Below, in pieces: positions 1 to 61,880 of a stretch of 64,000 bases of DNA. Every line of letters begins with the position of its first letter. Position 1 is the first letter of the stretch. Source of the DNA: Lytechinus pictus. Lineage: Eukaryota. Below the pieces are notes generated by a model that saw only the letters and a program-made list of their open reading frames with translations, was not told where the DNA came from and did not search any database. The translations under genes were made by a program, and so were the position numbers. The stretch is taken from contig NC_087245.1 in the NCBI RefSeq assembly GCF_037042905.1, forward strand, positions 14,510,001-14,574,000. Direction: 5' to 3'.

Positions 1-115
1 CCAGACGATGATACGATAGACCAGAGGCAGTAGCGGTTGATGTCGTAGGGTAAAGGATAGTTAGGTGATCGTATCGTCCTGGTAAGAGGGGAAATTATGA
101 TTGTCTCCTCACAAT
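1..115 (-). CDS. Exon 37 (truncated by window): CUB9 N-part
   Basis: CEETIII..TIRSPNYPLPYDINRYCLWSI. Confidence 0.88.
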
Positions 116-3100
116 CTAAACAAAATGAACAATCAAAAAAGTTATTCAATATTAGTTCATGTAGGCCTTGGGTAATGTAGGGAGCATTTCATCAACATTT
201 ATATCTAACAAGTTGTCAGATCTGACAACTTTCCCTGATTTTAACTGACTGAGGAGCATAGTTCCTATGGTATCTGTCAGATAAAACAGGACTTGTCGGA
301 TAAAATGTCTGACAAGTCCTTTCATGAAACACGCCGAAGACCTCATAATTCATAATAGGGGGGTCACTTTTGTTTTAATCTTGTCTGAAACCAAGTTTCT
401 TATCTCAAATAAAGCCAATGCAACATATAAGAAAGGGAAGAAAATCTCATGGATACAGAATTCAACATGTTTTTCAATCTCCTGAGCATTTTTTTAAAAT
501 GATGATACAACTATTCTTGTCTTGGCACAAAAATATTATACAATTTTAGATTAATCAAATGATTTCATGATTATCAAAGTGATCTTGAGAAGATGATGTT
601 CTATCCCGATACTATTCAATTCAGTACTTTGAGTAAAACTTTTACCAAGTAGTTGCTGGGCTTAGAAATGTACTTTATTACAATTTATGTGTCGATTGGA
701 CTTCCATACCTCTATCTTGCTTTGCATCAAGTGAGAATCCTATATCGACAGTGGAGTAGTCAGATGTGAACCTGACCCAGCCGATAGACTCTTCAATCAT
801 GAGAGAGAATGGTTCCACCGAGCCAGAGAGTGAGACATAGTGAGAAGTGGGATCAGATGCATCATTACCACGACCAATCTCAACGATATCATACCTAGTG
901 ACAAAGATGAGCATACCGATACGAGGTAACTTTACTATGATAACAATATGAACATCAAGACGGCTATAACGGATGTTTTAAACGAGTGTTACATGAAAGA
1001 TACCATTAACAGCAGAGTTACAGCCATTAATGTGTACCTGGAAAATCACAAGTTGCTTGGTACAATCAAATTATAGCATATTCCATGAAAAATTGCACTT
1101 CATTTTTATAAATTTCATTTATCATTGCAAAAACAGAGTAGACAGTCATTTGATAGACCAAATGGGTTGCGTTCTCACAACGGTGTCCTAGCTTCTATGG
1201 AACTCTAGGTTTAGTCTTTAGGATTTATTCCAAAGATAATGTTCAAAAGAATCCATAGGAAATCCTACTTTCTATATTTCATTGTGAAATAATTTTCTTC
1301 TTTTTTTAATATACTTTTCACTACAGGATTGAAATACTTCGTATTTATCAAATTTAACGGAATAATCGCTCCATTCACTATTCTACTGTAAGTTAATCTA
1401 GGATCATGTGACTCAATGTTAGGCAATTCCATATCCAACATTTTTAGATTTTGTGTGCCTGATTTAGCACCTTGCTTTCCTTTTTAAAATTTGATACAAG
1501 GAAAATATGTCTTTCCTATCATCTGAATTTATTCATTCAAACAATTTTCTACTTACATTCCGAGTATAGTGGTATTTAGTCATGGTAATGGAATAAACTG
1601 GATATCTAAGCCTATGTCACAGGTTAATTAAATCATATAAATCAATTCAGTATTATACCAACACTGACTATCATCCTGTTCCTGTTTGTTGCAAGCTTCA
1701 TTTAATCAAAGGATTTGGGTTTTGAGGACGATCAACATGATTATTCCTACTGTATATATGAAGTGAGATGAAAATTTAAGAGGAATTGACCTGTTATGAG
1801 ACAAACAATGATATGAAAACTTACCCATATTCTGTAAAGAAAGCATTGGTGTCCATGCCAATCCTAAACCTGCCACCCTGATCTGCCTGTAGGTACCAGA
1901 CGCAGTCCAGGTTTGTGGGGTAACCTTGAGGGTAGTTAGGAGACTGGACCCTCTGGAAACCAGATACAGGGACAATCAATGTGCCGCCGCAGGTTAGGTT
2001 TGTGACCGGGCTCTCTGTCGGTGCTGGCTGTTTGGTGCCTGGGATTTCACCTGAAACCACACAATGATGAAAGATAGGAATAACATGTAATCTACCCACT
2101 GGGTTGAACTAACTTTGATTCCTCACCTTAATAAAACAATTCTTTTGTTTAGAGGCAGGTTGATGTTGATTTTGAATTGGATATCCAACGTTTGATCTGA
2201 TAAAATGATGCTTTATCATATTCCATCAATATCAGCAAAGTCAAATTGTTAGCACATACACTGCCTGATTCCCCTGAGAATTACAAACTAAAAATGAGCA
2301 AAACATACAGGTCTTGAAACTAAATATATAAACATTAAAAAATATTGAACATAGTCTCCCTCTAGAGGAAAAGACACTGCGAGAAACATTTGCTTAGTAC
2401 TTACTAGGAGTTTTCTCATCAGCAGTAAGTGAGAATCCCTGAGCTGCGGCAGCGTTAGAAGAATCAGTCTCCAACTTTACCCAAAGAGCATCCTCACTGG
2501 AACGTAAGAATGGTGGTTTGTTGGTTCCGGAGTAGCGATCAATCTCTGTCGCACCATCAGACGGATCCATGCCATAACCTACGATAAGGACATCATAGTT
2601 GTTCTCCAGGCTGAAGTCGGTGAAGTTGAGTTCAATGAAGTTATCGGCAGCGACCTTGACATCGCCAAGAGCAGTTGAGGATTGTTGGAAGACATAGGCA
2701 CAGTCCTGGTTGTCTTCGTAACCATTGGGGTACCCAGGAGAATTGAAAAACAATGGGACTGGTCCCATTTTGAGAGGGTAAACATTGGTGCACTGCTTCT
2801 CGGCAGGTAATTCTATTGTCAAGAAAAAAAGAAGGATGATAGTATAGATTTAAACATAGGTATTTGTAAGATGATTTAAAACATTACACAGTCAGATATT
2901 CCATGTTTCAATATTAGCATCATATTCTGCTACGTTTTATTCCAAAATCAGGTCACAAACCAATCTTAAGGTGTGCGGTGGCATTTACATGCAGATAAAC
3001 AAGGGTCCCATCTCATGTAAATTGGTCTAAAAATTGAATTATTTAGAGCCATACATGTATAAAACAGTTGAAATGGTGATATTTGATTAGCTGATGGCAA

Positions 3101-6100
3101 ATTTGTCTCAGAAAGTTTGCATTTGTTACTGATAATTAACTTTATGATTTAAAAGCTTGTGCCTGTTTCAAAAATCTTGTTATCAATAACAAATGTGAGA
3201 ATAAAAACCATAAAATCAGCCCTGAGCCAATAACATGGATACATTTCGGTAGCGTTGAACACTCGCATTTGCCTTGTCATTGATAACTAGTTTCGAGAAA
3301 CAGGGTCCGAAGTCAATGACATACAGAGGACTTACCAACATTGTACCTCGTGTAGGTGAAGAAGAAACCAAATCCTTCAATTCGATTGTCTGTCACAAAC
3401 CTGATCTGGATAGACGTGGCCTCACTGATGTAAGACTTGGGCAAAAATATTCCACTTAGCCTCTGAAAATGATCACAAGTGAAACAGCAAACTGATAGGT
3501 AATGAATACACTAGTATTGATGGCTTCAAAATTTGATCTTCGGGGAGGAAGGAATGACCCAAGACATGGAAGGTGAATTTGGTCACACCCATTTAACAGG
3601 TACAAAACTAGAATTTACAATTTAAACTACTGAGAGAGTGATAAGATAAAGAACATATGCAATAGATCAATGCTTGTGGTATATCACACTGGTATACCTC
3701 ATATGACCTTTGACCTTTAGTTGTGAGACATTTGACTCCAAATAAAAATTGATATGTTTAAACAACTCCTACCATCAAAGTTTGGTTACAAAAGAATAAA
3801 CATAAAGGTTGTTTTATAACTGTTCCATGTGGAAAATAGCAAGTACATTTCCAACATTTTACCTTATATGAGCCTTGACCTCCTTAAACGACCTTTGAAC
3901 TAATTACATCATTGTGGATGGATGGATGGATGCCATTTCCATATTTTTTTTTCCATCTTAGCAAATTCTAAACCAAAACAAAAGAAATCTACATGTATCT
4001 CTTCAAATCAATGCAAGTCTTATAGATAAGATTGTTTAAGCTACTAACCACTCTCTCCTCATATCAATTCTCTACCATCTCTGAGATGGTTAGATAGTCT
4101 TATCAAAGCAAGTCTTATAGATAAGATTGTTTAAGCTACTAACCACTCTCTCTTCATATCCATTCTCTCCCATCTCTGAGATGGTTAGATAGTCTTCGGG
4201 ATCAGGGAGAAGGAAGAGGAGCTGGAAACTCAGCTGGATGCGGGTATCCAAGGAGATGGTGTATACGCAATCCACAGACGGTGGGTAGTTACTAGGGAAG
4301 TTGGGAGATGAGATGTTGCCAGGGGCATCGGTGATGACGACAGGTTCCAGGCATCCTGCAAAAAGAATGTTTTAAAAGCAAACATAGAATGCATCACTTT
4401 CATCTATTGAAACTTCCCAGTATGTGAAAATACCTATTTTTCACTCTTCTGATTATTGCCGTTATTTTTTGTCAAACAGCGACAACACACGAGCTTGCTC
4501 CACGCACAAAGGTCACAATGTTGCGATGAAAAACAACCACTGTTCATGAGAAACACAGGAGACAATGACGAAATTGGCCAAGAAAATTAAGAAACGTGTC
4601 ATGATAATTCTACTTCCACTGTTCAATTTCATTGATATAAGCTTTAAATTTGAATTGCAATAAAAGTTTTTTTTTTTTAAAGAGTACCGAATATTCTACT
4701 CTCAAACATAATTTTTTATCAAGAATGGTGCTGCTGTCAGTTATTTCTTCGGAACACCATGAACGGAAGAACATAAACAAAACCCATCGCATTGGATGGA
4801 CTCTGGTGCTCCGACACGACTGGCTTAGTCCTATTAACTTCTCACAAAATACTAAAGAAAGTCATTCAAAAATATTACCTGCATAAGGAAGAGTGGTTGC
4901 TTCTATCGGAAGACCATAATCCAAGTTCCTATCGATAAGAAGCATTGGTTTGATGGAGAAGCGATACGCTGTGCTTGCACGAAGACCACTCACCACGCTG
5001 CTGTCGGAGGCACCACCTACCACCATGAATTCTTCAGCATTGTTGAGGTCTGTGTACTCAATCATGTACCCTATGACGTCACAGTTAAACAATGACGGGA
5101 CCCAAGTCAAGAGGATGGTTGAATCAGAGATCGCCTCACCACTGAAGTTACTTGGGGCAGTCTGGATTGGGACATAGTCTGTTGGGGTATGAAAAGAGGA
5201 GATAGATTGTATTCCAACATCAATTACTGTAGGGTTAACTAAGTATATCTTGAAGAATGTTTATAGTGAATCGGGTTTGCAACATGAATTTATATTTCAA
5301 TTGTGTCTCTGATTTATTGGCTATCAGAATACAGTATTGATCATAAAGTTGCATAAAAAATAGGCTTGCTTTACAAAAAAAAAGAAAGGGCGCCTTACAA
5401 ATAATACAAAATTCAACATCATCATTGGGGTTAGAATTTGCAGCACAAAGAACCATGTAAAAAATAAAGACATAAATCTACATGAATTAGAAAAATGAAA
5501 AGAACATGCAGGTAAAACTTTGTTACCCAAAGATATCTTTTTTAGTTCTCTTACCCCTGATAATAGGAACTTTACTTGACAAGGTTGCTATATTATGTTC
5601 TGCCACATTATGACATACAAGGCGATCCCTGCTGGAATTACCGGAATCACAAACTCTATTGTGACTTTATATTTCTTTCTCAAATCTACTACTTTCTTAT
5701 ACAGCACTTTGTCCTGCATTCCATATAATAATGATAAAGTGTAACTCAATCAAATAAATATTATTTTTCATTGCATCTTATGTGTATAACTTGATAAATG
5801 TAAAATAAATTAATCTAAATTATTCTGAATCTGAAAAAGAAAATAGATTTCTTCACTTACCCTTGGCAAAGATCTCACAGATGAATTGGTTTGGCCTCTG
5901 ACACGGCCAATCCATCCACTGACCACTGGAGATCATCTGGACACAGTCCTGGACATCACCTTCAGCTTCATCCGGTTCATCAGGTGCCCAGTTGGTCATC
6001 TGCCATGCGGTCATCGATGAGCAGTCCGTCCAACGGAAGTCACCCTCTGACCACTGGTCTTGCAATCCTGGCATTACATTATCATAATATTTATTTATGA

Positions 6101-9100
6101 TATCATATCAACCAAATAAATATAATATAAATAATCAGGATTTCTATAGCACTTTGAATGTATCATACACTGTAATCATGGCCTCATAAGGCAGCTAGTT
6201 TGGTAGTATAGCTGGGTTTTCTTTTAAACAGATTGCGCATATTAATTAATGCAAGCATAAAAATAGGACATTTGTTCAATCATTGAGATACGTGAGAACC
6301 CAGATTAGACATATCAGATGGAAAGTGAACTAATCAGGCGAGCGTATACAAGTATCGTGGCAAGATCATAGAGTTCGAGTAGTACTTTTGGTCACTACTA
6401 GAGAATAGATTTCAAAAGAGTATTGTACAATCCTATGCAAAACAAAGTACAACACAATAAACGGAAAGAGCAAAGCTGATTGCAATGCAATCACAGGAAA
6501 ATTATTTTCTGGGGAGCATTTCATCAACATTTTCATCTGACAACCTCCCTTGATTTTGATTGGCCGAGAAGAATGGTTCTTATGGTTACTGTTGGATAAA
6601 ACAGGACTTGTCGGATAAGAGTCTGACAATTCCTGTCATGAAACACTCCCTCATTGTGCAATTACAAACTCCAAATCATTTATATTTGAACTCTGAATAT
6701 CATGATATTCCAATATTGTCATGATATTACAATATTTGGGGTAAATATTAGGAAGCCCTGACATCACCACAACTGGGCCCGTAACACGAAGATCAGTGAT
6801 CAATCGCTAATTTAAAAGAGCAATTCTGATCACTTCCTAGTCAAATAACTGAGCAAAATGCGCATGCAAGGAAAGTCTTAATAAGCCATTTCATTTTACA
6901 GTGATTGATCGCTAACCTTTGTGTTACGTAACCCGGGACAGTCTGGCTACTTACCAATCCACCAATCTCCTTCCACTGTCTTATTAAGAATGTAATCATA
7001 TTCCTCTTGGTTGTCGACGACGACCAATTCACCTCCAAAGTCCTTACTGCATTCCAGACGAGCTTGACTCCAGGTTAAAGAACCCTTGACAAAACGATAG
7101 CAGCCACCCTGGTAACCTTCTTCATAGTCCGCTGGGCAACCAACTGAAAGGATGAGATCATAGTATTACAGATAACAGCAAACTCTCAAGTTGTAGGAAA
7201 GGTAATATCAGTTTAATATTGCGAATTCTTCTGCAGATTCTCTCACATTTAAAACATGACAATATCCAGCTTTTCTAACATATGTGTGCATGCAGTCCCA
7301 CGGGGGGATTTCTGTCTGCAGTGCAAGCAACTCGAAGCTAACAAGGATGAATTTCTGATCCTTTGGGTCATTCTAAAATCAAATACAGACCTGCCAACCA
7401 GTACGTTTTTGGTGTATTTAGTATGTTTTTGCAACCAAAATACGGCAGTGCATTTTTTTTTTTTTTTACAAAATCGTAATTTATTGAGAAAAATCATCTC
7501 TATATGTCTCTATTTCATAAAACTTACACAAATATGGTTATTAGATCAATGTAATTTTAGGTAACTTGTTTTTTTTTTCAATCATTTTGTTAAAACCAGG
7601 TTGAGATATAGACATGTTTAAATGTGTTTTTTTTTTCATCCGCAAGAGCAGTGCGCATTTTAGCTTGCATGCAGCTTGAGCACCGCGATGAGCGAGTGCG
7701 CCACGCATTTTATTATGAAATACACTTTTTTGGGGAAAATTCAATTTTTTTAATCACAGAATACACTTTTTCATTCCCAGAGGTTGGCAGGTCTGCATAT
7801 AGCACAGGCTGATATCTACATGTATATGCATTATAGACAAGTATTTGTTCATTCGTTTGAGGGATTGTTCTGCAAGCCAGAATTTTAGTAGCTTTTAAAA
7901 GACGTCAGAGATTTCTTCTGACAAGACGTTTCACAAAGGGCTTTCATCTAACCTGTTTCATTGTTGGTTCTAGCATCGATGCGTTCACTGTATGACAGCG
8001 GCCCGTTTATCGTCAGAGCAGCGATCCTGAAGCCATACTCAGTATCAATCAGCAGATTGTTGACAAGATAACTGCTTGTTTCTCCACCATCAATGTCAAC
8101 GGTGGTTGCAAGTAGACCCTGAGAGATGAGGATTCGGTAGCCTGTCACATCACAGCTGAAATCAGATGGTACCCACGATAGGAGGATGCTGACGATGGAG
8201 AGAGGACTGGCTAAGAACTCTGTGGGACTCAGGTCTCTTGGTTCAAGATCTTACAGAGGGAAAGGAGAAAGGTATTATCATTTTAGGGCAATTCCATAAA
8301 ATAATCAACCTTTTTGTACATCCAACCCCCATATTCTCAAGTTTTACTTCAATTCATAAACTTACCATGTCATGATCATTTGAGAACATTACAGACTGTC
8401 AAAAGAACCAGAAATCAGAGGCATAAAATTTCATGAAAGTCTCACATATAGGGGGTTGGGTGTACATATCTTATGGAATTGCCCTTTGTCATTTCAAAAT
8501 TGGAGGCTACATGTAATATTAATGATCAAAATCATATTTACACAAAGAATAAGATTAAAAACAACATCATCAAAAAGTAACAAAAATATTCTATCATAAT
8601 CTTAAATAAAATCTTGTAAACTAGCTCAAACTATTTGAAAATACAAGAATATATGCATATCCTAGTGCTTCCCCATATTCTGAGATTACTTACTGCGAGG
8701 ATCGAGCTCACAGATATACATGTTTGGCCTGTCACAAGGCCAGTCCATCCATTCTCCGCTAGAGATCATCTGACCACAATCTTGAGTCCCATCGGAATCA
8801 TCTGGCTGACCTGGAGCCCAGTTGGACACCTGCCAGATGTTCATCTCAGTGCAATCTACCCACCGATGGTTGTTTTCTGTTCCAACATCGTACAACCCTG
8901 AAGACAAGGAGGTAATCAGTGACACAATAGGCTTCAAATAAAGAAAGTTTTATTCATGCAAGTAATTCTCTTAACACGTTGACTCCTGAAAAATCTTGAA
9001 TGCAGACAGACTTTGAACTGGGTCATCCGGTTACAGAAGCCTAATCTGTAATGCCTGCTGAAGTCTGTAACTCCCACCTTTCAGGGCATGTATTTGTACA

Positions 9101-12100
9101 ACAGAGCAGATTTTGAGATCAAACTGATTAAACTCACATTATAACTTATATGTAATAAAAAACCTTCCCTTACAATGTGTGGGTTTAATAATACATGTGC
9201 GCATGTTGCGCCCTTAATGTGACGTCATTTATATGCATTAATCCGAAGATATTTATCAACCACAGTGTATTCAACCCCATGCAGTGATCACAGTATTTCT
9301 CAGTCAAAATGATTAAAATCTGCAAATGAATGCTACAGTTTTCACGGGATGTTACTTATAGTTCTACTAATTTATTCTTATTCCCCTGGCACTTGGATTT
9401 CATCATTCGGTTAAATATTTTTTAAATTGTTCATTCTCACTCGCGGCCCACACTATCTTTTGTGTCTTTAGGAATAGGTGGGTGACCCACAGGCCTCTCA
9501 TGATGATTGACATTGGTGGTGCATGTATTATAAAACACAAAGATTGCATGACAACTCACCAACCCACCAATCACCCCCTCTTGTTGTATTCAGGATATAT
9601 TCCAGTTCGAATGGGGTCTCAATGACGACCAGATCTCCACCATTGGTTTGTTGGCAAACCTCTCGAGCATCGTGGAATTCAACCACACCAGGAACAAATC
9701 TATAACAGTCTCCAGTTGGACCAAGCTCGTAATTTGCAGGACAATCTAAAAATGAATAAGGCCAATGTGGTAGTCAAGAGATTCATTACACCAGACATGC
9801 AATATGCTGTATCTGCCACTATATACAGTACCTGTATGTGTAGATACTTGCCAATGCAGTACAATTTTCAATAAGAATGCATAATCTGGAGTTCTTACTC
9901 ATGTTTCTAATAGTGGCTCATATCCTTAACAGAGCACACTGAATTTATAGATGTAGAAAGATGGACAGAGGGATAGATAGGTAAGTAGGTAGGCGGATGG
10001 ATGGGTGGACAGATGGACAAACAGTCCGACCGAACGAGAGACGGATGGATGGCAACCACCTACAATAGGCCGGGGGCATAAAAAGTGCTATTTTTACCAA
10101 GATACACTAATAATAGCTCACTTTTATGTTGTCATTTTCCCCTATGAGACTCAAGACACTTACCCTCAAGAGTAGACACCTCAACCCCAGCTGAATTACC
10201 AAGATTTCCAAAACTGAAGGTCAGAGTATCAATGAATATGACATAGTCGGTGGCTGGGGTCAGATTGTTGATGATAGCGCTTGAAGTGTCTCCGCCAGGG
10301 ACAGTCAGCGTTCCCGTATCTCCATTTTGGCCCTGCCAGCCTAAGATGTAGGCCAGGATGTCACACTGTTGTGAAGAAGGGAACCATGTTGCCGTAATAG
10401 AAGATGGGGTTTGGGAGTTGCCTCTTAACAGCAAGGGTGACACACTATCTGGAGACGAATCTGCAATAAGATAAAAATTGATTTTAAGCCATTACATGTG
10501 ATTTGATAACTGTTTAATACACACTTTAACTAAATGTACATGTATGTGCATTTTGAAGACCATTTCATTACACCGCTGAGATTTTCCACACATCTTTCAC
10601 AGTATGTACTTGTCATGTTTGAGTGAGTCTCAAACTTCAAACAAGATTTTTTTTTTCTTTAATCTGTGAATAATTCCTTGACAGTCTTCTGTACTGAATC
10701 AAGTGGTTAATTCTAGTTCATACTTTTTTTTTACAATATACTTATACATATATAGTCTTGCTTCTTAGGGACCCTAAGTATTTTAACGCTGTAGTTTGGT
10801 TTTATTTTGAATCCTATATATGTTGTGTTATGTCATATTTTTATGTTCAAATAAATGAATCAATAACTAAAATAATGAATTATTTTCAACATCAGTCCCT
10901 GTGATTTTTTTTTTCAAACTGTAGGAACAACTCAGAATTCATTTTGTCTCAACATCTGATGGTTCTGAGTGAGATTGTCACATGACACTTGCAGATTCTG
11001 AAGAATCAACATAGTAGGTAATTTGTATAGAATTTGCCTTTTGGACACAAAAACATGTTTTCTTTCAAGGAAATCATATGAGAAATGTAGAAATTTCTAC
11101 TTCTATCTGGAAAATGATACCGCTAGCTATTGCAAAGATTTCATCAATACTCACCCCGGTCTTTGATCTCACAGATATAAAGGAGAGTGTTACTGCAAAC
11201 CTGGTTGCTCCATGTTCCTATTACACCATCGAATGTAGCACAGTCATAATCTACATCGTCGTTGCCTGGCTCACCTAGTCCCCATTCAGTGTAAGAGGGC
11301 GCTGTGCAGTCCGAACCCCATCGCCAGTCACCTTCGTTCACTGCATCATAAAGACCTGGCAAATACATAATGTGATGAATAAAAAATAATTTTCCTCATT
11401 CAAGAATATAAGGAATATTTATTTGATTAGATTCACATCAAAATATTACAGGAAATAGTTTTCGTCAAAACTAATAACGTCATATTTTCCACTACTTTTC
11501 AAAAGAATTTCACTGACCCACTAATTTGACATACTGTAGTCAGGCATTCCCTGTGACCTTCTTTCGGTTGCCTCCTATCTTATTGACTTCTTACACAAAG
11601 AATTGTTGAGATCTTATACTAAGATTTGTCACATCCCATCTCACCCTTAACCCTCTGAATACTGAATTCTCTCATTCCCATAGACATTTGTATACAGACC
11701 ACCCTGGGCCTGTAGGCAGGGGGTTAACTTACCAATCCAGTATTGTCCATTTCCTGTCTGTCCCTGTAGGTATGCCGTCATAGTCTCATTTGTGATTTCA
11801 ACCAGATCTGAATTCTCGGTCTGGAGGCAGTCTGCTCTTGCGTCAGTCCAAGAAGCAAAATCTATGCTAACCTTGAAGCAATTACCAGCAAAACCGAGGA
11901 CATAGTCAGAAGGACAGGCTGCCAAACAATGTAAAGCAATATATAAAACAAGGTAAACTCATTAACCCAAGGCCTAGTTTCCATGAGCAAATTTATTGAA
12001 ACATACTACAGTGGTCTGAATTTTCAGACTACCAACTGATTATTGTTTCCATTTCAATAAACATAATAAAATCAATGATAATAAAAATAATAATTTCACT

Positions 12101-15100
12101 ACATTAACAGTGAACACCTACATTAGTTTGCGTGGATAGTTTATTCATTGTTATAAACCAACGTCCATTCTGTCCATCTCACCTAATGGATGGAGGGGGG
12201 CTAGTGAGATGAAATAAAGCAGAGTAAAATAACCATCTAATGTACATGTTTCACTTAAAAATGTAAAAATAAATTTTGGTAGAGCTTTGAGATACTTACG
12301 TGGAGCCAGAGGTGTTGTAGCATTGATGGAGTTACTTTGAGGGTAGGCGGAGCCAGGGACGATGGGAGAGATGGTGAAGAAGTAGCGTGTATCTTCTTCA
12401 AGATTCATGACTACAACGGAATCACTCTGAGCACCATCAACCTTGAATGGAAATATAATGGAAATATAATACAAATAATGCACAGATGAGAGAGATTTAG
12501 TTGCAATGCAGGGCACGCAAGTGTATTTACCATTGAGAATTATAAGACATACTACCACTGAATACTTTTGCACAACATTGCAAAATCCCGACAGCGTAAA
12601 CTTGTGCAGCATTTGTGATACAAAATATTTCTAGTTTATTATATCAACTTTTAGATCAATGATCACACAAACAAATCATTGATCTCAAATAAAGCAATCA
12701 TGAAGTCCAATCAAACATCAAGTTGAATATTAAAATTGAAAATGAAATGTGAATGTAATAGAAATGTATATTTTTAATGATGTGAGAGCTGCTTGCATGT
12801 GACACAACAAAATCAATCCTTTGAAAAAAAAATATGTTATTCATTGATGGATTCAATCTTTCATTATTATATTTCTGTAATTCTTCTACCTTCATTTAAA
12901 CTTATGTCAGTATGGACTTCCCCTTGAACATTACATGTTCAATACACTAGACACTGCAAAGCTTGATTGATAAAATGTCAACAGAAATATCCTTTCGAAA
13001 ACAGAAAAAAAAAGACTCAACAAAAAATCTTTGCTGTATTTTTTCATCCTTTTCATTCTAAAACAAGGATGCATGATTCTTTAACCACATCAAAATGCAA
13101 CTGAGATAGGATTTTTAAAATATTTTTTTCACATTTGTGTGTATACCTGAACCTCCCCACGGATGATATTTGTGGAGTACTGAATGCGGTAACCGGTTAC
13201 GGAACAGAGATTTGCTGGTATAGTCCACGTCAAGGACACCTCAGAGAAGCTCAACACCTCTGCCTCAAAATCAGTTGGGTAGATGTCATTTGCTAAGTCT
13301 GGAGAAGTTCAAAGGACATATAACAATTAAAGCACAATCTCCACTGTCTACATTAAACTCGAATCCTAGCGATACAACCTAACCCCAATCTTTACTCTTA
13401 CAACATATATGATCCTATTAAAGCATATATGCTTAATCCTTACAGTAAACATATCACATTAAGTGCAACTATCACTAAAAATATCCCCAACCCCAAACCT
13501 AAACCTTACTTTACCCATATCGTTCTCTGTGTTGCGGGTGTTCTCTATTCACGTAAATAAAACATGGACACTACACCAAGCTATACTACACCGAGACACT
13601 CTACCTATTCCTGACATTATTTCTGATCGAAGACATAACCTTTACAAGACACATGACTCTCATGATATACCTAATCATAATGTACATGTATAACTAATCA
13701 CATCCCCTGCATTGTATAATATGAACTCAACATTTATTAGCAAATATTAATAAAAAAGATTCTCATGTATGAATACATAATCTTAAAAAGATAGAATACT
13801 AGTAATATCGATAATCTTTCAATAATCTTTAAAAAAAATAAAATTGAAAGGTTTCCAATGCACCGCAGCAGCCTAGTGACACATTTGACATGAGAAAAGG
13901 TTGAAGTAGTTTCTCTCCTAGTGCTATAGTCATATCAACAAATCTGACTCCAAACAAACCAATGGTATGTGAATTGAAATAACATAATTATAGCTTTTAT
14001 CAGTCTGACGTTTGTTTCAGTGGTGTGACTATGGAATAAGAGAATGTCAGGGTAGGTGTGTGTGGGGGGGGTATGTGTGATTGTTTCTTAAATGTGTTTA
14101 TTTCTTATCAATTATTATTTATTACTAACTATTTCCTATTTACTTGTTTTTCATTCTTTATTTTCATTTTTGTTGTGTTACATATCTTATGTAATGGGCC
14201 ACTCTTCACAAGCCTCTGCTTCACTTTGGTCCTAACCATTCAATGATATATCATGATTTGCAAATGATTTATAAGTTTTTATATCCCTCTTATGAATATT
14301 CATGAGTATTCTAGATAAACGGTTGGTCAATTCGTGATCATGTGACAAAGTATAATTTCAATAGGAAAACACATCGCTGCAATTAGCTCCGTATAGTTTT
14401 CTTGTAGCTCCGTATATTTTTCGATATACTTTCATGGGCATAACTGCGCATGCTCATGCTCGATATTTTCTCTCAACTTTGAATTGTGCATGCTCCCTGA
14501 CCCATATACCGTACCGGTATCGCGATCATCCGCAAAGCAAAAGCGCAAAAAGTAAATAAAGTAAAATACAAGCTCTCGCCCAAATTACCGTGCCGACAAT
14601 CTGAAAAACAGTGTGGAATTGGGTCTAGATTACAATGCAGAAAATATAATTCCGATGGCCATTCATACAGGATCCTTAAATATGGAATAAACATACCTAA
14701 CAAGGTGAGTCAAGATCCGATATTAATTTTTAACGTTAGAGCATACATTTTAACTGCGCGTACCGGAATTTATTTTGAGTGCCACTCTATGGTGCCACTG
14801 CAGCAACGGCAACGCAGCGCAGCGGACCTCTCATTAAGTGCAGTCGGGTAGAAGCCGCGCGCAGCCTACCCATGAACTGTCTAGCAATTTTTATAGCTCG
14901 ACAGCTAGAGTAGGAGTCAGGACTAGGTCCGGCAACGTTAGATTTGTTCGAGGTTAAAAATCAGCAAGGACTGGAGGGATATAAAACAAATATATCAGGC
15001 GTTTCTTTCGAAAGCATAGTGGGAATTATTAATCCTCGGTTGGACTTGCAATGTAACTATTTTTCCCTCGGGGCTTCGCCCCTCGGGAAAAATAGTAATT

Positions 15101-18100
15101 GCCAGTCCAACCTCGGATAAATAATTCCCACTATACTTTCTCAAAGCCTGATATATTTGTATAATAATTTGTCTTGATGGTTGTGTGGTCTAGAGGTTAT
15201 AGCGTTGGACTCATGACTGAAAGGTTTGAATCCCAGCTTGACAATTATCTCCACTTTAACCAAAATGGCCCAACAGTATTATATATCATGTCATCCATAA
15301 GGTCAGCCAACTATGACTGATTATCATAGACATAAAATGTTTCCTGTATGTAATTGGTTACATATAACAGCTTGGCATTAATGTGGCAGAAAGCTGTTTT
15401 GCCAAGTTCTTGCGGGAGTTACTTCAACAGAACAGAAAAAAGTAGATGAGCTTACCTTCATCGTATTTACATAAGAATGCATACTGAGCCGAACAGTTCT
15501 CAGCCATCAGGACCCCTGTATCAATGTCAAGGTAGACACAGTCCTTGTCATCTGTATTTCCTGCTGGTGTGTTCCATGTTTCTCTAGTCCAATCCAAGCA
15601 AGTCGACCACGTGAAGTCTCCCTCAGTCTCAGAGTCAGACATTCCTTTAGGGATGATAATAAACATACACCATTGGTATCATCAGCATAGCATGTTTGTT
15701 TTTGTTTTTTTTTAATTGTTGTTGTGACCACTCACCTCAAAATCCACACTAAGTTCCTGGACTATAATCTCAGTATTAAGCCAAAATAGTCAATAAGTCT
15801 TCCAAAGATAAACATCCACAATTAAAGCTTACATGTATCTGAAAAAGAAAACTCTATAGAGGACATTTACACCAAAAATTTGAATATTGCAAATTCCAGT
15901 TAAATCAAGATAAAAGTATTTTGTTGAAGATTATCTGTCCAGACTGCTATTTTAACAGATCTAGCCCAAGCATGCAGATCTCATGCTTGAGTGTACCTCT
16001 AACTTCAGACCCCATTGTTCTTTAAATCGCTCCCTAAAATTTGTTCCTTTTAATCAAGTAAATGGGACTGCTACATACCGATCCATCCATCATCATCACT
16101 AAATGTTTGGAGGAAGGCTAATTCATTCTGATCAACAATGGTAACCAGGTCAGCTCCCAACTGACGACGACATTCGAAACTAGCTTCAGTCCAAGTCAAC
16201 TCATCTGAAGAGTAACGATAACAGAATCCATTTTCCGATCCCTCATAAAGACGAGGACAACCTGCGTGAAGAGAAAATGGATAGATTATCAGCTGAGCTG
16301 TTGCAAAAAGGGTTCAGTTTGACTTAAAGCGCTACTGTGAGTCGTTGTTGTGTAACACATCACTTGTTGAAATCATAAAGTTGGTTAGGGACAATTCATT
16401 TATCTGCTCCAATACATAAGTAAAATGACACCTTTTTACAAAAGATTTATTCAGAATGTCTTTCATCAGGACATACAACAAAATCACTGCCCTAGTATTG
16501 AAGGAATCAATTGTATATGGGGAAAACCCCATTCCTAATTCTGAAAAACCCAATTCTGAATAATATTACATAAGTGATGAGCAATAGGAGAGTCGCTCCT
16601 TATTTTGTCACAATCTTCTTACTTCATTGCCAATTTGAGATTCAATCGGTGATCAAAATGTTGAACAGCCATAACTGTAATATTCCTTGTCTAATCACTT
16701 TCAAACTCTCTTCATCTTTTATTTTAGTTAAATATTTCTGCTTTCACAAAGATCCTTTTAGTATTAATGTTGGATTTCCTTTTATTAGTTGCAGAAGAAT
16801 GCAATAATTTTGAACAAGATAATTGCAGGGCTGTAGCTAGGGCGGGGGAGGGGGGTTCCCTGGGTTCCGTGGAACCCCGTCACTCGCCAACAAAAAAAAG
16901 AAGAGTTTTCTTGGTATTCGCTCAGAATGTGTATCGGAAAAAGGTTCACTTTTTTTCATATTCAGGATCCCCCCCATAAGAATTCCTGGCAATGGCCCAG
17001 AATTAGAAATACATTTATCTAATACGTGATGATGGATGATTTTGTTGAAAAGATAAAGAAAGGGGACAATCCTTACCAGTCGTTTGAGCTGAAGTTTCGA
17101 GAGGCACAACACCTGTGAAGGAAAATGATAATGTTTCCAGTCGGAATGTATAGAACATTCCCTTGCTTAAACCATCAACCCTCAATTCACTTGTTTCTCC
17201 ATCCTCGACGTCTATCTCTGACAAGGGCGTTGTTTCTCCTGACTTGAAGACAGAAACTTTGTATCCTGTGATGTCACAAAATTGGGCAGGAGGGCTCCAT
17301 GTAAGGTCTACTGTTGTCTCGTTGATGGGTGTTCCCCGGAAAAAACGAGGAGTAACATCTTCTGGGTCCGAACCTAGGGCTGCAAAATAAAATAAATACA
17401 GGAAAATAGTTTATTTGATGGAAAGGTATTAATCATTTGTTTTAAAATGTGGCATTTGCTACATTAATGTACTGGGCCATGCAAATGGTCTGTGAGAGAA
17501 TCTGATCAGTACTATGAGATGCATGATTGACAAGACATATAGACCAGGTTGTGTGAGACATCAAGGGCAGCACGCTAGCCCCAGTACAGCCCACTTACGC
17601 TACATCATGTACATTCTAGAATAGCATTAAAAGTGCATAATATCTACTCACATCGGGCTGTTGCTTCACAAATGTATCCTACGGGGCTGCTGCAGTTTGC
17701 ATCGTTCCATAATCCAGTCGTATCCATGGTAACACAGTTTTCATTGGGATCCTTAGGATGATCTCCACCATCCCAGTTACGGTAGGGGGGTCGGACACAC
17801 TCGTACGTCCATAAGAATTCTCCTTCTTCCACTACATCATACAGTCCTGTGAAGGGGAGGGAAAAAAACCCATGCATTAAAAAGTAGGATTGTTCCTTTA
17901 ACCACTTTTAAATATGGCCGTAAGTTTAATGATCCTATTAAGAAAACAATGAGAGCTGGTTCATGGCATGATTCTACCGATTAATTCCTTATTAAAGTGA
18001 ACTGGTTTCAATGTTCTTGTCAGTCTTGATGGTACAAAAGCAGTTCAATAAAAATGAACAAAAAGTGATATGGTGCTGTTTTGATTTGATATCAATTCAT

Positions 18101-21100
18101 AGATGTTCATTGAAATTCCTGGACAGACATCACTCTAACTTTGTCACTCTCTATTCAGGGGATGTGTCATTAACTCTTTCAACGCGTACTTTGCACCGAT
18201 GCACGATCGGTGCCGCGCGAACTTCGCATTTCACGCTCAGACATTCAGTCCATTGTATTTGTGCGAATTGTGTTGATTTTCCCAGAGGTGGTGGTTTTCG
18301 TTCAGCTTTTGTTATTATCTACACTCACATGGCTTTCGTATGCGGTCGTTTCACCATAGATTTACATTGCAAATTTTGTAGAAAAACACGTTTTTTTACA
18401 GCTCTTTTAGTATTGTCATCATGGCTCCAAGGAGGTTATTTTCCGTAGATGAAGCTCGTGAACTTATGCTGGCGGGCTCTCCAGAGTCACCTGCTTTTGT
18501 CATGGATTCAGATTCGGAGCATGATGAGCCCATGTCATCTCAACGCTGTCCCACCCATAGCAATACAGGTGGTGAGTTGGATATCGATGAAGATGAACAG
18601 TTTACTCAAGATTCGGACAGTGAGATTGAGGATGATGATGAACAAGAGCAGAATGATGATGAACAAGTACATTCCTTCCTTTTTTCTGACTATCGTTCGT
18701 TCTTTCTTTTTTTCTTCCTCTCATCTATCATTTTACTTTACCTTTTCTTTCTTTCGTTTTTATTGCTTGCTTCCTTTCTTTCCTTCCTTCTTTGTGTCTT
18801 TCCTTCATTATTATGGTTATGTAGATTCTTATACACTAGCCTTTGAACATCCTTTACCATAATAGAATCATTTTTCTATGAAATTATGGATTATATACCA
18901 ATTTTTTATCATTATTTTCCCTCAAAATGTTGGAGTAAAAAGTTATAGCAAGTTGAAGTAAGCAAGTGTATTTTGTTTACTTCTCCTGATGCCTCCTTGA
19001 AAACAATTCAGCACAGAGGGGGTTCATGGCCCAGCGCACAAAGAGTTAAGCTGGTTTTAAGATCAACCTGAATATTATCATTTTGTGCAAATATTCCTGA
19101 AAAAACATGACTGTATTTCTAATACTAGTAATCTTATTTGAATTTTGAAGAAAAAAATGCACAAAAATATTTCTTTTTATTAAAATGCTTTTCTATATCT
19201 TCATGATGAATCTTTAACTGATGAAATGAAATAACCATTGATAATCTTAGAGTTGTTTTATACCCTATCAAGTATGGAAAAGCACTTTCAAATCACTTTA
19301 CATGTTCTATTCAAAATAACTTAATCCTTTCCAAAACAAATTGGTAAAATAAAATGGACATTTTCAATATATGCGGTAAATAAGTGTAATTTATACAGGA
19401 AATCTGCATAAACCATGGGTTCAAAAGATGGTTTTAAAAATCACCTTCGTGAATTCGGGCCCTAGAGTCTAGCCTTACCTATCCAGTAATCTCCAGAAGC
19501 AGGAAGCATGGATCCCAAGTACTCATTTTCCTCCATTGTCTCAATGTTCACAAGGTCTGCATCTTCTGCTACTCCACTGATACATTGGTCTCTGGCTTCC
19601 ACCCAGGACAAACTGGCTGGCATGATAGAATAACAGCTTTCTCCCAAGAAATAGTCATAGCCAGTTGGGCAATCTGGAAATACAAGGATGAGATGGAAAA
19701 TAATTCACTTACTAATAAGCATTTTTTATCCATATCATTCAAATGATGATAAAAAACTATGTTCATTGACCCTAAATGACATTTGACCTTGATCGTGTGA
19801 CCAAAGACTTGTGCAAGACGATCAGTAATACTTGATTACCCTTAATTAAGTCCACATTTCATGAACTAAATCTATAAACTTTCAAAGTTATGATGGCAAT
19901 TCAACAAATACCACCAACATGGCCAAAGTTCATTAACCTCGGTCATGTGACCTGAAACTCACGCAGGATATTCCTGATGCTTGATTACTCTTATGTCCAA
20001 GTTTCATGAACTAGATGACATTTAAAAAACTTAACCTTGGTTAAGATTTCGTTTCGATTCCCCCAACATAATCTAAGTTTATTGACCCTAAATGACCTTT
20101 GACTTTGGTCATGTGACCTGAAACTCACAAAGGATGTTCAGTGATACTTAATATACTCTTACATGTATGTCCACGTTTCATGAACCAGATCACTAAACTT
20201 TCAAAGTTATGATGGAAATCAACAAATATCCCCAACATGTCCAAAGTTCATTAACCCTAAATGACCTTTGACCTTGGTCATGTGACCTGAAACTCAAGCA
20301 GGATTTTCAGTAATACATGATTACCCTTATGTCCAAGTTTTATGAACTAGGCCAATATAGGTCCACATACTTTCTAAGTTATGAGGACATTTCAAAAACT
20401 TAACCTTCGGTTAAGATTTTGATGTTGATTCCCCCAATATGGTCTAAGTTCATTGACCCTAAATGACCTTTGACCTTGGTCATGTGAGCTCAAACTCTGG
20501 CAGGATGTTCAGTAGACTTGATAACCATTATGTCCAAGTTTCATGAACTAGGACCATATACTTTCTAAGTTATGATGACATTTCAAAAACTTAATCTTTG
20601 GTTAAGATTTGATGTTGACAATGCCACCGCCGTTGGAGAAGCTGCGCCTATAAAAAAAAAATGGATGAGAGAGGTGCATTCTCATAAGTATGTCTGAGTT
20701 GGTCATACCAACACCATGAATATCAAAAGTTGGCATCTCTGAAAGAGAAAAAGAGAGAGAAAAAAAATAGACAGGGATAGGGAGAAAGGAAATAGAAAAA
20801 TAAGAACGTGGAAGAGAAGAGAGAAAAAGAGGGAAATAAAGAGAAGGAAAATAAAAGGGTAGAACATGGCAAATACTGACCTGCAGTTGAGGCCAAGACG
20901 GATAAAGCTGTTCTATAGCTGTAACAACCATACGAGACTGTGCATGTTGTCAGTTCAAAGTGATAGGTGGTTGAAGTATTTAGTCCATTGATAACAATGG
21001 AGTTGGTCCTGGCCCCAAGAAGCTCTTCTTCCACATATTCACCAGGAACGCTGGTATTGTAACGGATCTAGATCAAACGGATACAAAACTATTAGTGCTT

Positions 21101-24100
21101 ATCCAATCAGGTTTATCAGTAAAATTCATAATAGATGATTAATAATTAATCATAATTATTGAGCCAGGGTTATGATGATAAATCAGATTTACATCACTGA
21201 AATGTGTCATTTATATTATGCTTTGACTAAGGGGGACAATGCCAAAACATAAAAAGATAGCTGTGAGTGCATTACTGCATGAGTCACACTTTTTAACTCC
21301 AAATATATAAACCGGTATATAAATATATATATTGAGCAGAAAGACACAGTGGATACAGAGAAAATTTTTTTTAAAAATCAGCTATTTCACAATTGGAGGC
21401 AAGAAAAAGAAGAAGAAGGAGAAAGACAGTGAAAGAAATCAACAACCACAACATCAATGACAAAGAAATTTTTAAAAAAAGGAAGAAGGGAGAGAAACAG
21501 GATGAGGAGAAGCAGAAGACAACCAATAATATAATAGAGCTTTTAATTTGCTCTTCTTTCCTTCATACCTTGTAACCTGACACATCACAGAGATAGTCAG
21601 ACACAGTAAACCTGAGATCAGCTTTGGTATATGATACTTCCTCGACTCTGAAGTTAGATGGATAGCAATCAGAATCCACATAGTCTGACAGACAAGACCA
21701 AAGAAATTGCAAAAAATATGTATTTCATTGTCAAATAACATTTACTTAATACACACTTCTGGGCCACGTCTTACAAAGAGTCGCGGTTGATCCGATCAAT
21801 CGCAACTATGGAAAGCCAGCAACATCAACATCTAAAATGCATGTTTGTTCAAAATATTTTCTAGATATGCTGTATATTCATGCACTCATCCTTTTCTTGC
21901 AAGTTCAGTGTGCTTCTCTTCGCTTACAAAAGACATTGAGGAAATTTCCTGCAAAATAAATTATGACATTGATGGATTTCCATAGAGTTATGGTTGATTG
22001 GATCAATTGTCCCTCTTTGTAAGACAGGGCCCTGGTGGGTGTAACATAAAGAATGACAGAAAAGACAACTCCATTTAAGAACTCCCAAAGGGCAGGTCTC
22101 CAAAGGAAACTCCCCTAGAGACAAATCTCCAATCCCAAGAAGAGTTGTCCTGTAGCATTGAAAAGGTAATTTCATATTTTTATCTATTATGATATTGAGA
22201 TCTTGATTCTTAATTGTGCTCATATGACCAGCTTTGACCAATATATATACTATATCACTCTTATAAATTATTCATCCAAGCATGAATCATCACCTTCCAT
22301 ACAACAGACATCATCTTGTGGCTCAACCTTCCAATCATTCCCCAGCCAAATAACAACTACTAACTCCAAAACAGCATAGGTCTGAGCAGTAGTGGGTCAT
22401 TTCAAATAGAAGACTCTCAGTAAATAGGTGCAGATATACGATGTTCACAGTACAGGGCTGTTATCGTTGAGAAAATTTTCTGTCAATATCATGCTAAAAA
22501 TATCTTACCAATATCGATAACTATCAACAAAAGAACATAATCAATACGCATTTTTTATGCATTATAGCGATGTCACATAATCGCGCCACTGTACCAAGAA
22601 CACTTTAAAATCTGCAATCATCGGATGTAAATGACTACATAACATCTTTAAACATTAAGCATTAATACATCCTCACCTTTCACGTTAATAGCATTACTTT
22701 AGGGTTGGATGAAGTTTTATAAAAAAATTTGGGTCTTTTCGGACAACGTTCTGAGCAGTCAACATTTTTTGCCTATCCGCCATTTTGATATCGTGCTGGA
22801 AATTTTTTAACGTAGAGGGCAGCAACACACGACTGTGTGCTAGCTGCCTTCTACATTAGTTCGTACTCTGAAAAAATTGAGCTTGCGCTTTTGATGTTTT
22901 CGATTCAATCGAATGGAGTCGACTGCGGTCAGTGTTTGGATTGTCACAATCTCAACCCCACTTCGCTATGATAATAGCGAAGTGGGAATGAGATTGTGTT
23001 TTGTGGCTAGTATTTTGTTGAGATTTTGGAGTAATTTCTGTTGCTGTTCTGTGCAGTTTGATATACGTTTTCCGTGATTTTCCCTTTGAAAAGCCACTTT
23101 CAAAGGGCTGTTTCCATGAATTCTGTGAAATCGGGGAAAATCACTGTGTCCCTACATAATAGCAGGTATTATCGACAACGAGAGAATAGTTATCGATATC
23201 GCTAAGTGGCAAAAAACAAGCAATTATCGATAGGACTAGCCATAAAGACGTTATCGATAACAGCCCTATCACAGTATTAATATTTTCATGGCTCTTCAAG
23301 TAATTCCCTATTTAGATCTCCTTGGCAATTTTCTCTTCAGCATTTCCTTTGAAAATCATGACCATCTGCATGTCTGTAATTGATATCAGTGACCAAATAT
23401 ATCCTATCCTTCAAGCTTTTTAAAAACCCAAGACTCACTCTTTCTTGTGATTTCACAGACATAGCTCCGATTGTTGCTACACATGTCGTCATTGTACTCT
23501 CCATCTTCGGTAGAGATGTAGGCACAGTGGTGGTCATCGGTGTTGTTTGGAGCACCAGTCTGCCAGTTACTATCACCATAGAAGGTGGACTCTTCGCAGT
23601 CCACCCACACCCATTCCCCGTTGATGGCCAGGTCATAGAAACCTGAAAGAATAAGAGAGCACGATTTCATCTGTGAGTTAGTAGACATTTTTACCAAAGC
23701 TACATGTAAATGGTACCAAGTCACAACATTCACAGTAGGTGGAATCGATGTATTTCAGATTCTATTGGAGAAACAGATAAGAGGCGTGAGCATCTGTCCA
23801 TAACAGATGGCAGTACAACATACCTATCCACCAATTCTCAGTCTCATTGGATTCCTGCATCGACCTGATCTTCTCTAATACATAGTCATTCTCATCACTA
23901 TCGCCGATCACCACCAGGTCACCATCGGCAACATCGTTACAGTCGTAGCGAGCATCTAACCATGAGGCTGGGGTCTTGACAAACTTGTAACAGGTTTCGT
24001 TTGCTGGGTCATACTCATACCCCTCTGGACAGTCAACTGGATGGGAAAAAATATGGACAATGGATAATTCTCATCTGTCTAAACTTCCCAAAGGAAAGAC

Positions 24101-27100
24101 AACACATAAACATTTTCAAAAAAAGCATATCTGTATGAAGAGGGGCCTCTATATATGTGAACATAATTGAATAAAGCTTTGTTTTCAAATTTGACTTTCT
24201 GTTTATTGATTTCCATTTCACAGTTGCTCATAATATGATAAACATTATCATAACAAAGTCAAAAATATTAGAAGACATCATATATTTCATAATGTTGCTT
24301 GAATTCTGAAGAGAAGAATAAGTGTGCCAAGACCTAAAAAATATACAAGAATATAAAATTTAACAGGCAATAATATTTTGACATTGAAAATGCCAATGGT
24401 GCCATGTCAGCACCACCATTAAATTTAGATGGGAGAGATTGCATTTCAGTCTTGTGTATTAAGATGTTTTCTAATTATTTTGATTCATTGTTTATCATTG
24501 AATATATATCCGTTTAATGCAGTTTGTGATTATTGATATAACTTGTTTGATAAGAGCTGTGCAGAAGAGGAGTGCTATTCAGACATGAGGAACCTTGACA
24601 TACTTTACTATCTGACAGAAAGATTCATGGTTTGGGGGATAACATGAACATTGATACTTCCTTTGGTAAATTTTTGCCTCTTTAAAAAACAATATTAAAA
24701 AAAGTGCATTTTCTAGATGATAATGTCCCTTAAAAGTATTCACACTTTCTTAGCAACCAGGTTAAAACAAAATCACCATCACCTTCACTATTAGTGAAAA
24801 TTCAATGTGATCAACAGAAATAAACCATAATCAAGTTATGGGTATGACGGTGAAAGATGGTGCATCATGTAATTACAAAACCCAATTATTCTTTACTTAA
24901 GGCTTGGTATCACAGCATTTCACTTTTCAATACTATTGAGAAATAGTGTAGCCCATTAAAAAAGAGCAAATCATATTCAAAGTCTCACAGAATTCTTGGA
25001 AGATGAGCTTGAATCCAGAGCTAGACATGGCGCTGTCTGTCTTGAAGCGGAGATTGAGACCGTTAAAGCGACTCACAACATCATCCGGAACTTCAGAACC
25101 AGTAAGTATCTGATATGATGTTTAGAAAACCCAAATAGAAAGTGATTGAAGTAGATTTCCAAAAATTACAAGGGATCATTATGCTATATGTTTGATATTC
25201 AGAAGGATTCATCAATCTTCTTTGCTATTGTAAATTCAACCATTACTCCTATAAAGTTACACTGTGTAAAAAAAATGGTATTAATTCACAACTTAACCAA
25301 CAATGCAATTATGTTTGGATCAATAAAGCATGAACCCTGAATGTAAAGATTTTTAAAATATGATATGATGATCAATTTATCTATGCCAGAATATGACCAT
25401 TCACAAATCTGCCATGTACGTACATTCCTTGAATGCTTTAGCGCCTATATGGCCGCTCAGCTACGCCGGGGTAATAATAATATACCAAGTATATTTCAGC
25501 GCCTTGAGCACATAATCAATGTGGATTTGGCGCTTTATAAATACTCTATATTATCATTATTATTACACATTGTATTTCAATTTATTCTGGGAAATATCTT
25601 GTAATTCCAACTACTAACTACAAGTACATAGTTATTAAGCACTTGATGATACTATACTTTCAGAGGATTTTTCGGGGCTTTACCTTTACACTAAATTGCA
25701 TATATTGAGAGCATATTGGTACTTTCGACTTATGTTTTACATAGTAACCAATTTGCTACCTAGAGCCATGTAATATTTGTATATCACCAAAGGTAAAAAG
25801 AAGATTTATTTGTCAATGGATTGAAAGTAGGGTAAAACTCACCAAGTAGGATGAATCCACATCATCCTCATCAGGGTTTGTTCCTCCGATGAGTAGCTGA
25901 TCGTGGCCATACTCCAAATCGAATTCCAAGAAGTGAAGACGTACTTGGAACCCCCCACGGACCTGAACGATCCACTGGCAGTCTGCATCATCAGGGTACA
26001 TTCCATGCAGACCACGGGGGGAATCAATCTCCCCGTAGCTCTCTAGGATGGTTTTAAGGATGCAAGCATCTGTGAAAAAAAATGAGATTACAGAGCGATC
26101 TCAGATTATGCTTTTGTTGCAGCACTTTGTAAGCCTTAGACCCTGCAATACCATTAGATATTCTTTGCTTGTGAATAACAATATGTTTAATAGAACATCA
26201 AAGATATCATATTCATAAACGTCATACTGTACAAGCAGAATTTTTGCTATGTTTATGTTTTCCCTAATTCCATGTGTTCTACATTGCACTATTTCTATTT
26301 CTGTATATCGCCATTGTGGCACATTAAAACAACACCGTGACATAAAAATAAAAACTCTTCAATTACTTCCAATGTAATTGATACAGATCTGATAAAGTTT
26401 GCAGCACCATGACAAACATTATCAGAAACAGATAAATTTTCAAAGATCAAGACAAAAACCATGTTTTCTTGTGTCCTAATGAAAATCTTTAAAGTTTGCA
26501 GCATTGCGACGAGCGCTAGCCAGAAAAAGGTAACTTTTCTAGAATTTTTTTTTTTTTATAGCCAAAAAAGGTAACTTTTCTAGAAAAAGATGTATATTTT
26601 TTTAAAAACTTACTATCATCCAATGACACTGAGATCTTGATGTCATCTCCTGGCATAAGATCCTCAGCAGAGAATACCACCCACATCTCTCCTGAATACG
26701 TTGAGAAGGTCTGATCCATGACATCCCGCGTGATGAGCTTCTGACGAGACCTAATATCCGTAGGATCCATCCCGGTTCCAATTTCAAAGACGTCATAGTT
26801 GTGTTCTAAAATACATGAAAGGTCAAATACTTTAGTTTTTTATACTTTATGGTAAACTGGCATCAGATATAGGATTACCTTCTACTGACATGCATAATCC
26901 AAATGGATGTTTAATTTACGTAAAAATAGTAGAATACGTTCAATGAGCCCAAGAGAAAAGATAAGAGTGTTAATGTGACAATCAAACGGTTTTGAGTTGA
27001 TAATTCTATCAGGAACAAAATTAGTATCTTCTTATTGTCTGAGCACCATGACTATTCCTTGGTAAATATAACTTCATTTAGACCTATCATCTCTTTATTC

Positions 27101-51400: not shown

Positions 51401-51822
51401 TATGCTGCTCTTTCATGTTTTCATACCTGATAGCATGATGGTTTCTCTTTGGGTCGATCTGTGGGTGATTAGGATCTATTCTCAGATATTCACTGAAATG
51501 AAACGTATTGAATAAATTAAACTTATTTTTAAATGATTTGGTGCTGATGTGACTGAAAATTTACTTGTAATGTATTTCTCAATAATTATGACATCATAAT
51601 CATCATCAGTGCTACTACCACAATCATCAATATCGTTATAATACTACCACAATCATGAATAATTTATATTGTAGTAATAGTAGTATAGTAGTAGTAGTAG
51701 TAGAAGTAGTTGCAGTAGTAGTAGTAGTAGTATTATTATTATTATTAGTAGTAGTAGTAGTAGTAATAGTAGTAGTAGTAGTAATAGTAGCATTAGTAGT
51801 AGTAGTAGTAGTAGTAGTAGTA

Positions 51823-51872
<50 letters not shown>

Positions 51873-61466: not shown

Positions 61467-61880
61467 TGTAAAGTCTGCATGGTGACTTCTTTTCAATTTT
61501 CTGGTGAAATTTTTAAAGTTACTTTCCGCGCGCCGGCTTCGAATCTTCACATGCGCGCCCCTCGATATTGGAGTACAGTTAGAGTGACGTATATTTCGTC
61601 CCCAACTGAATTTTGAAAATATGGGGATTTTCGAAAGCCTGTGGGGACGAAAAAAATTATTTGGGGATTAAACAAACTTTGGGGATTTTTTTGTCTGTTT
61701 CAGGGGATTTTGGAAGGTTTTGGTGAAAACAACAAAATTTGCTATTTTTCTGTAAAATAATGCTAATATAAAGGTGAAAAAATATGTTTATTTATTCACC
61801 TCTATGTATACGATCTACTGTAGATAGTTAACGCTGGCTTATCCCAATCATGGTTCCCAACTTTTCAAGAAAACAAAAAT

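Follow-up and report, generated by a model that had tools for sequence, protein, structure and literature searches.

The macrophage mannose receptor family (MRC1, Endo180, PLA2R, DEC-205) displays tandem long-form C-type lectin (CTL) domains on an extracellular rod, preceded by Cys-rich (ricin) and FN2 domains. In cubilin, long runs of CUB domains are combined with EGF repeats and a coiled coil at the N-terminus, and the protein is not known to contain a CTL or fibronectin type III (FN3) domain. Long-form CTLs use six canonical cysteines, and FN3 domains are usually without disulfides. Here, we analyzed a 64,000-nt stretch of the Lytechinus pictus genome (NC_087245.1, positions 14,510,001 to 14,574,000, hereafter referred to as the window), which encodes on its minus strand a predicted protein with six consecutive CTL-FN3 pairs, each domain of which carries an additional cysteine. 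We propose that, within each module, the extra CTL cysteine bonds with the BC-loop cysteine of the FN3, a reading built on sequence and structure prediction to which we assign a probability of roughly 80%. The CTL-FN3 pair is a real and conserved supradomain made of ordinary domains, and it is probably locked by a disulfide.

The nearest structural precedent is the lectican–tenascin-R complex (PDB 1TDQ), which consists of two proteins bound non-covalently and Ca-dependently, burying CTL strands b6 and b7 and loop L4 (PMC4052930). It resembles the present case in that a CTL packs against an FN3 outside the cell, and the aggrecan CTL matches the CTL of the predicted model (Z 20.1, root-mean-square deviation (rmsd) 1.4, 123 aligned). 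In contrast to that complex, the two domains here belong to a single chain. Their putative link sits at the WxDG hairpin, which is not known to be the CTL face buried between lectican and tenascin-R.

The best PDB sequence matches are from the mannose receptor family, which shares the tandem long-form CTLs but lacks interleaved FN3 domains. The window protein instead begins with five CUB domains, and each of its CTLs is followed by an FN3. The extra CTL cysteine is found in 0/14 CTLs of an MRC1-like protein from Asterias. Long CUB runs recall cubilin, and hemichordate relatives are automatically named "cubilin-like". However, the predicted signal peptide of the window protein runs directly into a CUB domain, and Pfam scans of the family proteins listed no EGF family. 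CTL and FN3 domains also occur in one chain in chordate PTPR-eta/H-like, tenascin-like, contactin and taxon-poor clusters of the ESM Atlas.

The gene model is a prediction from sequence, with exons chosen manually on the basis of reading frames and GT-AG sites. It contains 31 exons running from an ATG at 40126 to 4879, with GT-AG junctions and no stop codon, and encodes 1992 aa. Six more exons stay in frame from 4879 to the window start, where the gene exits. The predicted order is a signal peptide, five CUB or CUB-like domains, six CTL-FN3 pairs and then four or more CUB domains, the architecture of what appears to be a large surface or secreted protein. The gene encloses all 12 of the cysteine motifs that an earlier note on this DNA had reported within 4879-24036 and overshoots that interval at both ends.

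All 12 motifs were located on the minus strand (6/6 CTLs and 6/6 FN3s), as the earlier note had described. Each window CTL has the six canonical cysteines plus one, which sits at the Gly of the consensus WSDG/WxDG, giving WxDC; among non-redundant background CTLs, this position is Gly in 595/943. The FN3 cysteine lies five residues ahead of the C-strand Tyr in all six FN3s, in the BC loop, and BC loops sit at the N-terminal end of FN3. Pfam Lectin_C matched 6/6 second-half CTL exons, and the domains are assigned to the long-form CTLs, which are marked by six canonical cysteines, a WIG motif and the CTL fold. Pfam fn3 matched 4/4 single-exon FN3s; the other two FN3s are each split over two exons, and their second exons gave no match when scanned alone. 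A profile built in this analysis detects all six in the gene model. The domains are assigned to the FN3 type, which is marked by a B-strand Trp (replaced by Phe in FN3-1), a C-strand Tyr, an L...T.Y motif and a seven-strand sandwich. The repeats are 26-55% identical among the CTLs and 16-34% among the FN3s, levels so low that the 6/6 pattern does not reflect recent copying. The most similar CTL pair is CTL5 and CTL6 (5861-9745), at 55% identity; their FN3s, at 33%, are no closer than the others.

The first FN3 carries three further cysteines, located ahead of strand A and in the region of the FG loop, which the earlier note had overlooked. Module 1 therefore has 11 cysteines (7+4), an odd count that is also found in Lytechinus P0126 and Strongylocentrotus purpuratus P0287. 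Because the count is odd, at least one cysteine there is free or linked elsewhere, making it a candidate free thiol or inter-chain link.

Sequence searches recovered the module from the sea urchins Diadema, Strongylocentrotus and Lytechinus and from the sea star Acanthaster. When 1.84 billion representatives were searched with a profile of the CTL-FN3 junction, the module also appeared in two crinoids (Antedon and Anneissia), three hemichordates (Ptychodera, Glandiceps and Saccoglossus) and two unnamed fragments. This profile gave 4174 matches, of which the best 150 were covered, so that echinoderms and hemichordates are a minimum range for the module. An initial FN3-profile search returned mostly unrelated FN3 proteins, with one family member among the 120 matches listed. 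Named relatives are S. purpuratus LOC577309 and LOC754003, L. pictus LOC129263433, Acanthaster planci LOC110985794 and Antedon XP_071940891.1. The closest relative, L. pictus P0126, shares 48% identity with residues 18-1029 of the gene model, and Antedon P0137 shares 31% with residues 3-1774. The relatives vary in module order and in the number of pairs (two to eleven). Some carry up to 11 tandem pairs, whereas others have two pairs ahead of a ZP module or lone pairs set between runs of CUB domains. P0126 and P0148 end in a ZP domain, followed in P0126 by a hydrophobic segment; P0004, P0124 and P0125 end in CUB domains and a hydrophobic segment. The N-terminal block of five CUB domains, CTL and FN3 is ~48% identical to Lytechinus and S. 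purpuratus ZP-domain proteins and the remainder differs, which suggests a paralogue or a shuffled chimera. Literature searches, with most subscription journals outside their scope, returned no description of this module, and no paper was found for six locus ids of the family.

To count the cysteines, we used 289 proteins with a domain match, in which 1073/1108 CTL halves and 1523/1535 FN3s were scorable; the unscored domains were cut or gapped at the cysteine column and include one truncated row on each side. The cysteine is kept in 105/105 CTLs directly before an FN3 and in 105/105 FN3s directly after a CTL (58/58 and 60/60, respectively, at 90% redundancy), with no Ser or Ala substitution of either one. 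Mean identity among the paired domains is 38% for CTL halves and 30% for FN3s. Among other CTLs, the cysteine occurs in 7/968, each time in a family member with a model that is truncated or misses half of a domain. Among other FN3s, it occurs in 10/1418, of which five belong to partial models of the family and five to unrelated proteins. Against these background counts, the pattern in the window exceeds chance. Both cysteines are absent from an unrelated direct CTL-FN3 junction in the brittle star Amphiura (P0297). A later search added 27 proteins, in which 1/75 scored CTLs had a cysteine nearby, at a different position and not beside an FN3. Of 50 complete modules from 14 proteins, 44 have exactly 7+1 cysteines. 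The reading of a disulfide rests on this single odd cysteine per domain, on the 7+1 count and on its retention across echinoderms and hemichordates.

The earlier note had taken the CTL-FN3 pair to be the unit of duplication, and three observations bear this out. Five hemichordate pairs with a CUB domain on each side keep both cysteines. The window array begins with a CTL and ends with an FN3, and both terminal domains keep theirs. Given these lone pairs and array ends, a neighboring repeat cannot in general be the partner. Across 28 junctions, the similarity of FN3(i) follows that of CTL(i) with rho 0.76 and that of CTL(i+1) with rho 0.48, where the difference has a subsampling range of 0.03-0.50 and orthologous modules inflate both values. 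The spacing from the last CTL cysteine to the FN3 cysteine is 37-38 residues in 44/50 modules and 35-40 in all, and a linker motif, K.F...D.N, is conserved near the junction. Phase-1 introns bound every CTL and every FN3 at both ends, so either domain could in principle shuffle alone.

Structure prediction, which the earlier note had proposed as a check on the pair, gave a confident arrangement of the two domains. AlphaFold2 folded the lone Glandiceps pair (P0160; 28-row alignment) with a predicted local distance difference test score (pLDDT) of 95.1 and a predicted template modeling score (pTM) of 0.85. By the pTM formula, undocked domains are expected to give ~0.55, and 0.85 needs a cross-domain error of roughly 3-4 Å, implying that the model places the FN3 on the CTL in a confident fixed orientation. 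A two-pair Lytechinus fragment (P0126; 10 rows) reached a pTM of 0.63, compared to 0.35 expected for four free domains and 0.51 for two independent rigid pairs. When the P0160 CTL and FN3 were supplied as separate chains, the complex score was 0.03 in two runs against a mark of 0.34; the supplied alignment was unused, and this result is evidence neither way.

Both predicted halves resemble ordinary CTL and FN3 structures: the homologue model matches DC-SIGNR (Z 19.9, rmsd 2.2, 128 aligned), and its residues 136-233 match a contactin-5 FN3 (Z 15.8, rmsd 1.7, 97 aligned). No solved structure with both a CTL and an FN3 appeared among the best 60 of 179 sequence matches or among the structural matches listed, match lists that were filled by one domain type and are not proof that such a structure is absent.

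For the inter-domain disulfide put forward in the earlier note, cysteine parity, co-conservation, the one unrelated junction that lacks both residues and the confident predicted orientation all argue in favor; the bond itself we infer. As to the covariation that the note had looked to in homologues, both cysteines are kept in 105 modules, with no loss within the family, and both are absent from the one unrelated Amphiura junction.

Several points weigh against an intra-module bond. The pattern is one of invariance rather than covariation, since no complete module without a cysteine was found, and the control lacking both cysteines is a single protein. The 105 modules descend from one common ancestor. 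Isoforms, alleles and the six modules of the window itself are among them, and the search profile contained both cysteines, so the counts show strong constraint and not independent trials. In 6/50 modules, including window module 1, additional cysteines depart from 7+1 and other pairings are possible. The folded sequences were the homologues P0160 and P0126 rather than the window's own spliced protein. Finally, some database models hold half-modules: a cysteine-bearing CTL is followed by an FN3 without its first half in Acanthaster P0125, P0133 and P0134 and Diadema P0140, and a cysteine-bearing FN3 follows a CTL without its second half in P0124 (Lytechinus) and P0138. These half-module models, from Acanthaster, Diadema, Lytechinus and Anneissia, likely reflect exons skipped in the gene models, because the breaks coincide with intron sites of the window gene.

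We considered whether the cysteines could instead bond between molecules, CTL to FN3 of different chains or like to like, knitting a disulfide-linked matrix. Such a matrix would suit an extracellular protein with relatives that end in a ZP domain (P0126 and P0148), and binding of a CTL to an FN3 in trans is known for lecticans and tenascin-R (PDB 1TDQ; PMC4052930). The odd cysteine count of module 1, kept in P0126 and P0287, points in the same direction. However, the one-to-one stoichiometry per module, the near-fixed spacing and the predicted intramolecular orientation fit a bond in cis more simply, and we regard the inter-molecular arrangement as improbable. We hold it slightly less probable again that both cysteines are conserved interface residues, reduced or metal-binding, in a module that is rigid without a covalent lock. 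The oxidation state rests on inference, and the K.F...D.N linker motif could hold the interface without a bond; against this, the 105 modules contain no Ser or Ala substitution, and two invariant cysteines in a secretory-pathway protein, each unpaired within its own domain, are normally bonded.

A different choice of partner would join FN3(i) to CTL(i+1) and make the unit FN3-CTL. The linker from each FN3 to the next CTL is very short, and the two-pair pTM of 0.63 exceeds the 0.51 for independent pairs. This pairing is largely refuted by the CUB-flanked hemichordate pairs, with the retention of the cysteine in the first CTL and the last FN3 and the closer similarity of FN3(i) to CTL(i) further opposing it, and we consider it very improbable. 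Lower still, we place the proposal that the 6/6 pattern arose by recent tandem duplication of an ancestor that happened to carry two cysteines. All modules do share an ancestry, but the divergence among the window repeats refutes a recent origin, and both cysteines persist from hemichordates to sea urchins.

Under the favored intra-module bond, the FN3 would pack back on its CTL in the secretory pathway, guided by the conserved linker of fixed length, and the two spare cysteines would oxidize, locking a rigid unit of ~230 residues. This unit would then be duplicated and shuffled whole, with phase-1 introns at both ends. Tandem units may form a rod in which FN3 spacers present the CTL faces in a fixed orientation and at regular intervals, either over a membrane anchor or within a ZP matrix, a placement based on relatives with a C-terminal hydrophobic segment. 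A role as a surface or apical-matrix adhesion or scavenger rod is a more tentative proposal than the bond.

The motifs at the putative sugar-binding sites are APN/YND, HPK/WND, neither, EPG/WSN, QPD/WMD and EPD/WMD (CTL1-6), so that EPN or QPD together with WND, as in Ca-dependent sugar-binding domains, occurs in 0/6 window CTLs. Because no site is complete, it is doubtful that these CTLs bind sugars in the canonical way, and ligands that are proteins or non-canonical seem more likely. A Patiria protein with CTL, CUB and FN3 domains is represented by one peptide, at 41% probability, from the skeleton (PMC5460417); as a candidate relative by domain content, it gives a weak pointer to where the family may be located.

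Interdomain disulfides have precedents, as do supradomains, and nothing established is overturned. The pair would add a two-domain building block, conserved across echinoderms and hemichordates, made from two of the commonest extracellular folds. The conserved cysteine pair predicts an exact, testable bond. Since a cysteine in the FN3 BC loop is rare (10/1418), the module would provide a natural case in which an FN3 scaffold holds a CTL in place. It also supplies a sequence signature for a family whose entries are now labelled only "uncharacterized" or "cubilin-like" and whose function is proposed from sequence. We think it unlikely that the full picture extends to a supradomain with a covalently locked interface unseen among the solved structures searched together with a module 1 cysteine that links chains into a disulfide-knit surface matrix of rigid lectin-displaying rods.

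Table 1. Features of the predicted gene (window positions; cysteines are given by the start of their codons).
Feature	Position	Strand	Details
First coding exon	40066..40126	-	ATG and signal-peptide-like hydrophobic stretch, judged by eye
Five N-terminal CUB or CUB-like domains	24989..35159	-	Ten exons, hand-built model
Module 1	20881..24036	-	CTL exons 24036-23824, 23642-23439, extra Cys 23598
Module 1 FN3	21684-21569, 21067-20881	-	BC-loop Cys 21589; further Cys 21667, 20944, 20926
Module 2	17077..19673	-	CTL 19673-19479, 17846-17652, Cys 17799; FN3 17379-17077, Cys 17278
Module 3	12300..16261	-	CTL 16261-16079, 15644-15456, Cys 15600
Module 3 FN3	13298-13147, 12441-12300	-	BC-loop Cys 13206
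Module 4	10164..11918	-	CTL 11918-11733, 11355-11155, Cys 11308; FN3 10460-10164, Cys 10365
Module 5	7953..9745	-	CTL 9745-9560, 8897-8694, Cys 8853; FN3 8249-7953, Cys 8154
Module 6	4879..7143	-	CTL 7143-6955, 6067-5861, Cys 6023; FN3 5178-4879, Cys 5083
Three CUB domains and start of a fourth	1..4355	-	At least six in-frame exons; Pfam CUB on 2/2 scanned

Of the N-terminal CUB exons, 3/5 scanned matched Pfam CUB, and 8/10 matched in a tblastn search with Lytechinus P0126. The second CUB-like domain (32392-32763) has zero cysteines, as does its counterpart in P0126. Among the sequencing-run records for 7900-10500 (21 rows), none was listed as RNA and 20 were guessed to be RNA, with shares of 0.05-0.27.

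A 95-bp tandem duplication with a 95% match (4007-4196) extends over the 3′ end of a CUB exon. The boundary chosen for this exon and its donor at 4144 are uncertain, and an assembly artefact is possible. Intronic sequence at 19700-20600 carries a dispersed repeat that has several imperfect copies within it and is probably what remains of a transposon. Upstream of the gene, 61020-63947 and 51671-51921 hold 16/32-bp minisatellite arrays, a 289-bp duplication and a long trinucleotide array. At 49816-50768, two adjacent minus-strand frames (161 and 97 residues) resemble proteins in composition and are possibly exons of another gene, or noise.

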